Shown one piece after another: positions 1 through 3,000 of a DNA stretch of 32,631 nt. The position numbers are program-made. Position 1 is the stretch's first letter, and every line of letters starts with the position of its first letter. Origin of the DNA: a virus (Duplodnaviria > Heunggongvirae > Uroviricota > Caudoviricetes); the IMG/VR virus record IMGVR_UViG_2778261165_000019, positions 1 to 32,631 of that record, one strand, 5' to 3'.

Positions 1-3000
1 ATGGCGGGTTATTTGTCCTGGTTATTCCCCCGTTGTAAAATCTCTCCTAAACTTAACGGTACGGCACCACACTTCGGGGATGAAATGTTCGCGCTGGTAC
101 TTTTTGTTTGCTACCTGGATGGCGGTTGTGAAGATATCGTTGTGGATGTCTACAACACGGAACAGCAGTGTCTTTATTCTATGAGCGATCAACGGATCCG
201 CCATGGCGGTTGTTTTCCGATTGAGGATTTTATAGATGGTTTCTGGCGACCTGCACAGGAGTATGGTGATTTTTAATTATTGCAATTGCACAAGAGTCAG
301 TTCGCCCCCAAAGACAGCACCTGTATCAATATAATGCAGGTTGCCAATATCCACGCGATGGCGCAACGGTGTATGACCAAACCAGAAATGATCAGCACCT
401 GTAATTCCCTGCCCTTTTTGGCGTTCACCTAATCGCGAGCGGCTCCACAAGACCTGATGCAAATCAACGTCCTTTTGCCATTCATAAACATCATCTGGAT
501 AATCGGCATGAGCAATAACATGTTTGCCGGTGCGACTATGTACTTCAAGAATAAAGGGCAAATGCTGACATTTTTCCAGCGCCGTTTTCGCTTGTTTCTG
601 TTGATTATCTGCCAGCGCAATAAACCAGTCGCCGCCATTCATCAACCACAAAGACATCTGCTGGGATGCCAGCGCATCCATCGCCATCTGTTCATGATTG
701 CCTCTTACCGCACAAACCCAATGTTGTTCCAGTAACTGCAGACAACGTAAACTTTGCGGCCCACGATCGATAACGTCTCCCACTGAGATAAGTAAATCTC
801 GCCACGGATCAAAACGACAATGCCATAATTTGCGGCGCAACTGCTCAAGACAACCGTGTATATCGCCAGAAAGCCAGATATGTCGCCATTGATGACCCGC
901 AATTCTCTGATAAACGGGCGCAGGCTGTTTCATCAATATTTTCCTCCCGCGCTAAAGATCACATAATCTTAACAAGAATGTTAAAAAACGCTGGACTCAG
1001 ACAGTAGAGTGTGTGTTATGGTTGACTATAAAGTCAGCGAAGGAAATGCTTCTGGCTTTTAACAGATAAAAAGAGACCGAACACGATTCCTGTTTTCGTC
1101 AACAAACAAGAAAATCATTTAAAATTAATGTGTTAAACAAAATCACGTTCATCTTTTAATCCCAAACACGTACCATTGCATATTAATACATTCAATTAGT
1201 TACCATTTTTTTCGAGTTTTTTAGAGAAATTTTCGGGACTATTTCAGGTCAATCCATGCAGACACAAGCAATCCCTGTATTGAATAATTCCGTAGCAATT
1301 ACGTAAAATCATCTCCGGCTGATTTTCATTCAAACTCGCGCTATCGAACGTCCATCAGCCAGCCGTGGCACGTTCTTGCATACGACGTGCTGCGGTTTCA
1401 TTTATCTCCGACCGGAAACTTCTTATACAAAGTCGATACGCCAACATCATAGATGATCGCCACCTTCTGGCGAGGAACTCCTGATGTAATTAATCGTCCG
1501 GCCTGTGCCCATTGTTCTGGTGAAAGTTTGGGACGGCGACCGCCAATTCGTCCCTGTGCGCGAGCAGCTTCCAGTCCAGCTTTTGTTCGTTCAACAATCA
1601 GTTCACGCTCCATTTCAGCCAGGGCACCCATCACATGGAAGAAAAAGCGCCCCATTGGGGTACTGGTATCAATTGAATCCGTCAGACTACGAAAGTTGAT
1701 GCCTCGTTCGCGCAACTCCTCCACCAGCACGACAAGATGCCGCATACTGCGCCCCAGTCGGTCCAGTTTCCAGACCACCAGCGTATCACCTGCCGATAAT
1801 GTCCTGAGCAGTTTTTTCAGTCCCGGCCTTTCGGACTTTGTACCGCTTATCTTGTCTTCAAAAATCAGCTCGCATCCTGCACAGTTCAGCGCATTACGTT
1901 GTAGATCTGTGTTCTGGTCATTTGTTGACACACGTACATAGCCAATAAGCATGGTAGCTCTCCCTGACAAAAGCAGGAATGATGCCATTTGCTCGTTATT
2001 TCTGTATTTTCATAAACGTTGGTTTGGGAGAAGCGGCGAAAAGGGATGTGGGTACAGGAGAAAATCAGATACCGGATATGTCAGCCTGGAAAAGAAATCC
2101 GAGTTCTAATCGCTGGAGAAAATTGCCTGATGGAACCATCATTCAAATGGGAATATCAGCATCAGGGCCATTAGGCTCACCTGTAAATATCACCCTGCCG
2201 ATATCTTTCAGCAATACCAATTATTGTGTTGTTGCATCGTACGATAATGCACGGTCAGGTGTGTCAACAATGGTTAGTTTTGCAGCATTACCTGTTTCAC
2301 CATCGCAATTTTCCCTGATGTCATCTGTGACTGAGCAAGGAGTAAATCCTTTTGCTTGCTGGATTGCTTTTGGAGATTGATAAATGGACAGATACTTCTA
2401 TTCACAAAAAGAAAATGGTTTTTTTACCGATTTAAATAAAGCACCTTCAGATGCTGTTGAGATAACCACGGATGAATGGCTGTCACTACTGGATGGTCAG
2501 GATAATGGCATGAAAATAGTCAGCAATCAGGAGGGATATCCGGTTTTGACAGAGCAACCACCTTTATCAAAAGAAAACCTTATTGCATTGGCAGAGTTGA
2601 AAAAAGGAAAACTTATTAATGAAGCCAACGAGCACATGAACAGCAGGCAATGGCCTGGTAAAGCGGCTATTGGTCGTCTGAAAGGTGAGGAACTGGCGCA
2701 ATATAATTTATGGCTGGATTATCTGGACGCACTGGAACTGGTTGATACCTCCAGTGCGCCAGATATTGAATGGCCTACGCCTCCGGCAGTTCAGGCCAGA
2801 TGACATCCGGCGCGGTGCTGGTATCTGTTGCCGTCACCGCGTCAATGTAATCCAGCACGGCGTTAAGTCGGGTTGTTTCTGCCTGCGTCAACTTCCGTCC
2901 GGCCTGTAATTTCAGCTGAATCAGACTAATGGAAGCCATTGCTGCATTAATCAGTGACTGGCGCTGTGCTTCTGCCGCGTCTAGTGCGGCGCTATGCTGT

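Follow-up and report, generated by a model that had tools for sequence, protein, structure and literature searches.

A prophage junction at the terminator of the small RNA gene sdsR (ryeB) of Escherichia coli

Introduction

Several integrating elements enter tRNA, tmRNA, or small RNA (sRNA) genes at the 3' end: P4 and P22 do so at tRNA genes, Fels-2 and SopE-phi at ssrA, and ryeE of Escherichia coli is a further site of this kind. The logic they have in common is that the symmetric, conserved 3' hairpin of a stable-RNA gene constitutes the bacterial attachment site (attB), the phage supplies a replacement 3' end, and the gene stays functional. The closest described case comes from Salmonella enterica, where ryeA/ryeB is a repeated insertion site of foreign DNA (Balbontin, Figueroa-Bossi, Casadesus, and Bossi, J Bacteriol 2008, via PMC3333887, PMC7380047, and PMC3603311). 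According to the same citing papers, PhiW104 attaches in Salmonella DT104 at the last 23 bp of ryeB, a segment internal to ryeA, and lysogeny at ryeB changes the 5' part of ryeA, with ryeA expression going down and ryeB going up. "RyeB" is already in use as a site label in an island-naming scheme in Citrobacter. Our literature search, in which the 2008 study was represented by the papers citing it, returned no explicit description of the insertion site in E. coli. In E. coli K-12, most transcription of the neighboring gene pphA comes by read-through from the promoter of sdsR (Choi et al. 2019, PMC6610125).

Here, we analyze a stretch of viral DNA of 32,631 nucleotides (IMG/VR record IMGVR_UViG_2778261165_000019; below, the window), for which an earlier reading of the sequence had placed a prophage-host junction inside the 3' end of sdsR, the gene also named ryeB. 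We conclude that a temperate phage occupies the window from position 1094 on and that it very probably integrated at an attB in the sdsR terminator by recombination of the lambda type, with a tyrosine integrase. Site and mechanism are those of the published ryeB attachment site, as far as the citing papers describe it, and the junction is of an already known, textbook style. On those same accounts, the PhiW104 site involves the same host gene and the same terminator hairpin, internal to ryeA, and the outcome is also the same, in that sdsR is restored and ryeA receives a different 5' part. The present case differs in its host, E. coli, in a core that is one or two bases off the Salmonella type, and in its phage body, a myovirus-like mosaic whose early region is Rac-like, the PhiW104 sequence itself lying outside this comparison. 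A further difference from the Salmonella case is that the E. coli neighbor pphA depends on the sdsR promoter (PMC6610125); the consequence goes unmentioned in what PMC3333887, PMC7380047, and PMC3603311 say of the site. Unlike the targets of the tRNA and tmRNA integrators, the sdsR locus is bidirectional, and repair of sdsR would of necessity break both the overlapping antisense gene ryeA and the sdsR-pphA read-through operon.

The junction between host and phage DNA

The features of the window that bear on the junction are collected in Table 1. The 26-mer ACAGGAATCGTGTTCGGTCTCTTTTT, read on the minus strand, occurs once in the window and is identical to the last 26 nt of sdsR in E. coli K-12 XL1-Blue (3568-3593 of the extracted segment; 0 mismatches), and none of 100 dinucleotide shuffles produced a match to it, even with 3 mismatches tolerated. 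The original prediction had recognized these 26 nt as the SdsR 3' end, which stands, and had credited them with one mismatch, which does not stand against E. coli K-12; that mismatch corresponds to the G/A difference that separates ACAGGAATCGTGTTCGGTCTCTTTTT from the Salmonella/phage-type version CGTATTCGG. The distance to the phosphatase start, given there as about 135 bp, proved to be 134 nt, counted from the pphA ATG annotated at 931-933 on the minus strand to the beginning of the 26-mer.

Table 1. Features at the sdsR junction and in the adjoining prophage (window coordinates)
Feature	Position	Strand	Basis
yebW (host gene, DUF1482)	1..276	+	Pfam DUF1482, 120 bits; named yebW in RefSeq relatives
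pphA (host, serine/threonine protein phosphatase 1)	277..933	-	Pfam Metallophos; RefSeq annotation
Stranded promoter of ryeA (sraC) with the initial ~64 nt of RyeA (+1 near 1030), fused to phage DNA, facing prophage	1007..1093	+	Coordinates transferred from PMC6610125; partial Rfam SraC_RyeA match
Orphan 3' end of sdsR/ryeB: distal terminator arm and U-tract, host origin	1068..1093	-	Exact K-12 sdsR match
Block common to attB and attP, AGACCGAA[C/T]ACGATTCCTGT, 20 bp	1074..1093	.	Four-way alignment
Prophage body: tail fibers, baseplate, tail, head, lysis, part of early region	1094..32631	.	Collinear with NZ_CP148483.1 except two IS elements
Phage att arm, tail-fiber/pin end	1094..1397	.	Collinear with attP arm of PP818812.1 and same arm in NZ_CP032801.1
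Candidate arm-type integrase site TTCGAG...AATTTTCGGG, within phage att arm	1211-1237		Repeat common to both attP arms
Hairpin, 3 nt past pin stop codon, without U-tract	1363..1395	-	Fold; cmscan
Pin/Gin/Cin-type serine DNA invertase, first prophage gene	1398..1988	-	Pfam Resolvase, 174 bits, and HTH_7; pinE in relative

The comparison by which the original prediction had proposed to be checked, an alignment to a prophage-free pphA-sdsR-yebY region, bears it out. In K-12 XL1-Blue, the pphA-yebY spacer reads ...ataaaaagagaccgaacacgattcctgtATTCGGTCCAGGGAAATGG... and runs on into the sdsR body; the window is identical to K-12 up to ...cctgt (1093) and thereafter reads TTTCGTCAACAAAC, with a mismatch at 1094, 4 more bases in common, and complete divergence beyond. 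The K-12 spacer enters sdsR at the exact point where the window turns to phage DNA, and the prophage end is set at 1093/1094. As the original prediction stated, the remainder of the sRNA is gone from this place and phage DNA stands there instead. The Rfam model SdsR_RyeB (RF00111) scores 20.4 bits on 1068-1134, below its gathering score of 38, with only the 3' 26 nt present; SraC_RyeA (RF00101) scores 24.4 bits, below its gathering score of 37, with only the 5' portion remaining in the window; and a scan of the whole window with Rfam gave no SdsR match at threshold and no full sdsR. The sdsR fragment beside pphA is a remnant, not a gene. The opposite strand retains the beginning of ryeA: the primer with which PMC6610125 mutated the ryeA promoter aligns to TATGGT at 1007-1012, and ryeA +10, which is sdsR +132 in that study, falls on position 1039 by coordinate transfer.

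We also considered whether the orphan sdsR end might act as a terminator insulating pphA and rejected this, as it forms no hairpin with its phage neighbor (MFE of -10.3 kcal/mol, z of -0.83). A search of both strands of 900-2100 for terminator-like sites found none.

On the phage side, the att arm is followed by pin, whose stop codon is trailed by a hairpin weakly resembling the 3' hairpin of Rfam CssrB (28.2 bits in cmscan, below the gathering score of 76); more than 70 records of Stx and other lambdoid phages have the sequence of this hairpin conserved near their ends. Induced myoviruses related to the prophage body are known, vB_EcoM-611R5 among them. The integrase had been predicted to lie outside the window, and tblastn indeed found no integrase gene encoded within it. 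The prophage continues past the window, and we estimate that its integrase end lies about 11 kb further on.

The opposite end of the prophage in relatives

The closest relative is a prophage of E. coli Z1323CEC0004 (NZ_CP148483.1), which is 100% identical over window positions 1-1983 and 1981-4218 and 99.98% identical over 4210-29782. Up to 29782 it differs from the window by two extra IS elements in the tail-fiber region; past that point the early regions of the two differ. No single genome of the E. coli collection holds the whole window, the best one covering 91% of the query at 99.8% identity. At the far end of the NZ_CP148483.1 prophage come an excisionase gene, an integrase gene interrupted by an IS element, and phage DNA up to ...caattaaaaaaagaccgaatacgattcctgt, which is joined to attcggtccaggg..., the whole sdsR body, and then yebY, so that the order at this junction is phage DNA, AAAAAAAGACCGAATACGATTCCTGT, and host sdsR body. 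With its integrase IS-split, this closest relative may have no ability to excise.

The sdsR gene rebuilt at this end scores 118 bits with the Rfam SdsR model, as against 114 bits for the K-12 gene. Phage DNA makes up the distal half of its terminator, the 11-bp stem and the U-tract are kept, and the half donated by the phage changes a native U-G pair to U-A. The direct repeat of the core for which the original prediction had recommended a search at the other prophage end is present there, along with a full sdsR, in NZ_CP148483.1 and in two further lysogens (L005 and L006), making three of three lysogens read that keep the full gene at the integrase end, albeit one with a lower score of 81 bits. 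The forecast that a rebuilt sdsR and the integrase lie at the far end is thus borne out in the near-identical NZ_CP148483.1 prophage, where it was read, rather than in the window's own genome, whose far end is, to judge from the shared att arm, probably the same as that of the relatives. A scan of genome contigs for integrase homologues returned two close relatives; one genome of E. coli and one of Shigella each carry a 95% identical integrase copy, at a distance of about 135 bp from a full sdsR.

Reconstruction of the recombination from four attachment sites

To reconstruct the exchange, we aligned the K-12 attB, the window junction, the integrase-side junction of NZ_CP148483.1, and the intact attP of the phage record PP818812.1. 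The four sequences agree column by column with what recombination between attB and attP to yield two junctions demands, and this agreement, together with the intact attP, supports site-specific integration into the 3' end of the sRNA gene, the central element of the original prediction. The uninterrupted attP of PP818812.1 (46275-46294 and flanks) lies between the tail-fiber end and the integrase gene, 137 bp from the 3' end of the latter, and reads ...caattaaaaaaagaccgaatACGATTCCTGTtttcgtcaacaaacaag...; the integrase-side arm stands on one side of its core and the window's arm on the other. An equivalent attP with a Salmonella-type core, aaaaagagaccgaatacgattcctgt followed directly by ttacggcaac, was found in the Salmonella circular element ZC-S1_prp, which also has a related integrase 3' region.

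In the lineage of the window, strand exchange took place within 1083-1093 (ACGATTCCTGT), the bounds being the host-type C1082 and the phage-type T1094. Identity to K-12 runs to 1093, inside the loop and distal arm of the sdsR terminator, and the junction falls within the last ~23 bp of sdsR/ryeB. The 26-mer of the window bears the host-type C at 1082 and the host-type tail CTCTTTTT, not the phage-type T and CTTTTTTT. In lysogen L006, the first position on the integrase side is a C; one of the two bounding polymorphisms is thus not constant among lysogens, and for this reason only the 20-bp block is safe as the core.

Taking these findings together, we propose that attB is the Rho-independent terminator with which the host sRNA gene ends, and that the attP of the phage holds an imitation of this terminator, about 20-31 bp long. 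Exchange within ACGATTCCTGT would then rebuild a complete, terminator-proficient sdsR at the integrase-side junction, beside yebY and beyond the window, and would leave the original last 26 nt of sdsR orphaned beside pphA, at the junction on the tail-fiber/pin side, as is seen in the window.

The integrase and the arms of attP

The integrase found beside an intact attP, in the relatives and not in the window, has the Pfam domains Arm-DNA-bind_1 (PF09003), Phage_int_M (PF22022), and Phage_integrase (PF00589), all above cut-off. Its residues 8-353, essentially its full length, align with the lambda Int structures 5j0n/1z1b (E of 1e-71), and the residues that match the catalytic R, K, H, R, H, and Y of lambda Int are all conserved in the alignment. 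It is, in short, a full-length homologue of lambda Int with an arm-binding domain; lambda Int itself is a heterobivalent tyrosine recombinase acting on arm-type and core-type sites. Further parallels with lambda are the excisionase gene adjoining the integrase gene in the relative, Xis being the directionality factor of lambda, and the location of attP between the end of the late genes and int, with repeated motifs on both arms. The differences lie in the target, which is an sRNA terminator here and the gal-bio intergenic site in lambda, and in the block of identity, which has 20-31 bp with mismatches as opposed to a 15-bp core.

Among the repeated motifs, AAATTTCGGGG stands twice in tandem on the integrase-side arm, and the related TTCGAG...AAATTTCGGG is found on the other. 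On the integrase side, the form common to both arms reads TTCGAGTAAATTTCGGGGAATTTCGGGG; on the opposite arm it reads TTCGAGTTTTTTAGAGAAAATTTCGGG (window 1211-1237), and the Salmonella circular element carries a parallel variant, AAATTTCGAGGAATTTCGAGG (CGAGG). From their sequence, these repeats look like candidate arm-type sites; across the window as a whole the motif is not enriched (6 matches against 5.3 expected).

Distribution of the junction and of its phage arm

In a megablast search of 5,426 complete E. coli genomes, host homology to window positions 1-1098 was found in all, at 98-100% identity, stopping at 1093 or, weakly, at 1098, and homology continuing through 1400 was found in only 224. 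Of these genomes, 5,189 have an unbroken K-12 pphA-sdsR segment and 237 (4.4%) have a split one, and the 224 genomes with the window's att arm are among those with a split site. The arm is joined to different phage bodies, namely, the myovirus-like one of the window, the differently built PP818812.1, and a lambda-like siphovirus prophage of strain ERL06-2442, from which we conclude that the integration module is a mosaic cassette. In the comparison with the lambdoid prophage NZ_CP032801.1, the alignment spans part of the arm. Outside E. coli and Shigella, one Salmonella element was seen, by way of the phage collection.

Alternative explanations

One objection is that the 26-nt match to SdsR is due to chance or that a phage sequence is merely terminator-like, given that terminator hairpins are simple and that the phage attP itself contains a look-alike. 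However, the 26-mer is contiguous with 1,067 more host bases, and these match the yebW-pphA-sdsR region in every E. coli genome at 98-100% identity; it has the host-type C1082 and the CTCTTTTT tail, not the phage-type T and CTTTTTTT; and none of the shuffles matched it. The shuffles, the genome-wide contiguity with host DNA, and the four-way alignment together refute this reading, to which we assign practically no probability. It is scarcely more plausible that an unrelated deletion or illegitimate recombination truncated sdsR beside a prophage integrated elsewhere, which would make the likeness to att sites a coincidence and the strain one without sdsR. Such an event would be in keeping with a window that shows a single junction and holds no full sdsR, but the break lies, to the exact base, at the border of the attP/attB identity block, the DNA on its phage side is an attP arm that an independent phage genome also has, the same junction recurs in 224 genomes, and full sdsR copies stand at the integrase end of all three lysogens read (the one of 81 bits included). 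We regard a deletion of this kind as very improbable.

A more serious contender accepts entry via the sdsR terminator and takes the junction to be a fossil of a prophage that is now grounded and non-excisable, its integrase inactivated or its far end rearranged. The IS element interrupting the integrase of the closest sequenced relative, the two more IS elements in that relative's tail-fiber region, and the divergence of the window's early region from NZ_CP148483.1 after 29782 would all fit such a history. Yet the window copy is free of both of the relative's IS insertions that fall in the covered stretch, its structural genes appear as intact open reading frames, and other lysogens and one phage genome record have intact integrases of this type, which makes this history rather unlikely in our view. 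Integration at the sdsR terminator by a lambda-type recombinase is accordingly the reading we retain, and the prophage is presumably still able to excise.

Possible implications for the SdsR/RyeA/pphA circuit

For annotation, the practical yield is an exact prophage end at 1093/1094 and a warning about the sdsR fragment beside pphA; the case also illustrates that a prophage boundary can be called from a 26-nt remnant of an sRNA gene by a reader working without tools. Biologically, little is added to the published ryeB/sdsR hot spot, and the loose end is the disconnection of pphA and ryeA from their normal partners in E. coli. As the sequence arrangement suggests, the sigma-70 promoter of ryeA and 64 nt of RyeA would stay beside pphA, facing the prophage and antisense to pin, and the body of RyeA would be severed from its own promoter, about 40 kb away and behind the integrase gene. 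The gene pphA, for its part, would be severed from the sigma-S promoter of sdsR; the orphan sdsR end forms no terminator, so that transcription leaving pin could reach pphA. In the integrase-side arm we noticed a promoter-like TTTGCA-16-TACAAT (segment L003 of NZ_CP148483.1, 5192-5165) facing the RyeA body, which matches 9 of 12 consensus positions and has a frequency expected by chance.

On this basis, we tentatively raise the possibility, which we hold to be somewhat short of an even chance, that lysogeny brings about a regulatory conversion of the E. coli SdsR/RyeA/pphA circuit. In such a conversion, the sigma-70 promoter of ryeA, which by convergent transcription normally dampens both sdsR and pphA and is the source of the antisense "antitoxin" RyeA, would be displaced to about 40 kb from sdsR. 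SdsR would be freed of control by RyeA, unless the promoter-like site of the phage arm or read-through from the integrase gene substitutes for the lost promoter, and pphA would lose its sigma-S-dependent read-through and would come to depend on transcription exiting the prophage. If this is true, the SdsR targets of stationary phase (tolC, mutS, and porins) and the levels of PphA would be altered in about 4% of E. coli.

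Control elements and a possible host-range switch carried by the prophage

The regulatory, putative switching and inserted elements recognized in the prophage and in other prophages at the sdsR site are collected in the table below. The window prophage contains an antirepressor-control region like immI of P1, P7 and P22, made up of C4 antisense RNA, the a1/b1 targets of that RNA, and isrK. The early region additionally encodes a type I toxin-antitoxin pair, of which the window supplies the sok antitoxin RNA; a Hok/Gef toxin gene is annotated at the equivalent position in relatives. 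Adjoining the pin invertase gene is a segment of about 1.87 kb bounded by inverted repeats of 20 nt (AAACGTTGGTTTGGGAGAAG and CTTCTCCCAAACCAAGGTTT; 95% complementary), within which lie assembly genes and alternative tail-fibre C-termini in opposite orientations. Taken with pin, this segment looks like a host-range switch of the Gin/Cin/Pin type.

Features of the window prophage and of related prophages
Feature	Location	Strand	Remarks
C4 antisense RNA, a1/b1 targets, isrK	window 27192-27388	minus	Rfam matches above threshold
sok antitoxin RNA	window 29560-29734	minus	115.7 bits
Hairpin-containing stretch	window 1326-1420		just past the pin stop codon
pin and putative invertible segment	window 1398-4229		inverted repeats at 2014-2033 and 3860-3879
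Promoter-like site TTTGCA-16-TACAAT	L003 5192-5165 (slice of NZ_CP148483.1, integrase-side junction)	minus	9-of-12 consensus match, at chance frequency
~11-kb element inside terminase large-subunit gene	L007 17394-29763 (NZ_CP032801.1)		prophage at the sdsR site, strain ERL06-2442

The hairpin-containing stretch bordering pin gives a weak partial match to the Rfam CssrB family (28 bits, where the gathering score is 76), and no U-tract is present at its hairpin. More than 70 records of Stx-converting and other lambdoid phages carry this stretch near their ends with about 87% conservation, and a plasmid also matches it. At the opposite junction, as represented in the closest relative prophage, that of E. 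coli Z1323CEC0004, the promoter-like site lies in the phage arm, directly upstream of the regenerated sdsR terminator, and is oriented so as to read into the RyeA body. Although a match of this quality is expected by chance alone, this candidate promoter might substitute for the lost ryeA promoter.

Modules shared with other phages and genomes

In strain ERL06-2442, the terminase large-subunit gene of the lambdoid prophage is split by an element that brings an integrase and a primase of its own as well as a capsid-protease fusion gene, an arrangement resembling that of helper-embedded PICIs (PMC10111431). The phage record PP818812.1 is labelled “Actinobacillus phage vB_Apl-pPE4”; its attP matches the E. 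coli sdsR terminator, its integrase is 95% identical to E. coli and Shigella copies, and its early genes are Rac-like. The host named in this label seems questionable; the phage may instead be one of E. coli.

Once its IS3-family and ISVsa5 insertions are subtracted, the Z1323CEC0004 prophage equals the window (breakpoints 1983 and 4218) up to 29782, after which the early region of the window diverges. These differences show recent gain or loss of insertion sequences, and module exchange, among near-identical prophages. Further, the same structural-gene module (97-98% identity) is found in other E. coli genomes at chromosomal coordinates far from those of the sdsR-site lysogens. Judging from these coordinates, it may occupy other attachment sites there; if so, different integration modules would be combined with the same phage body.
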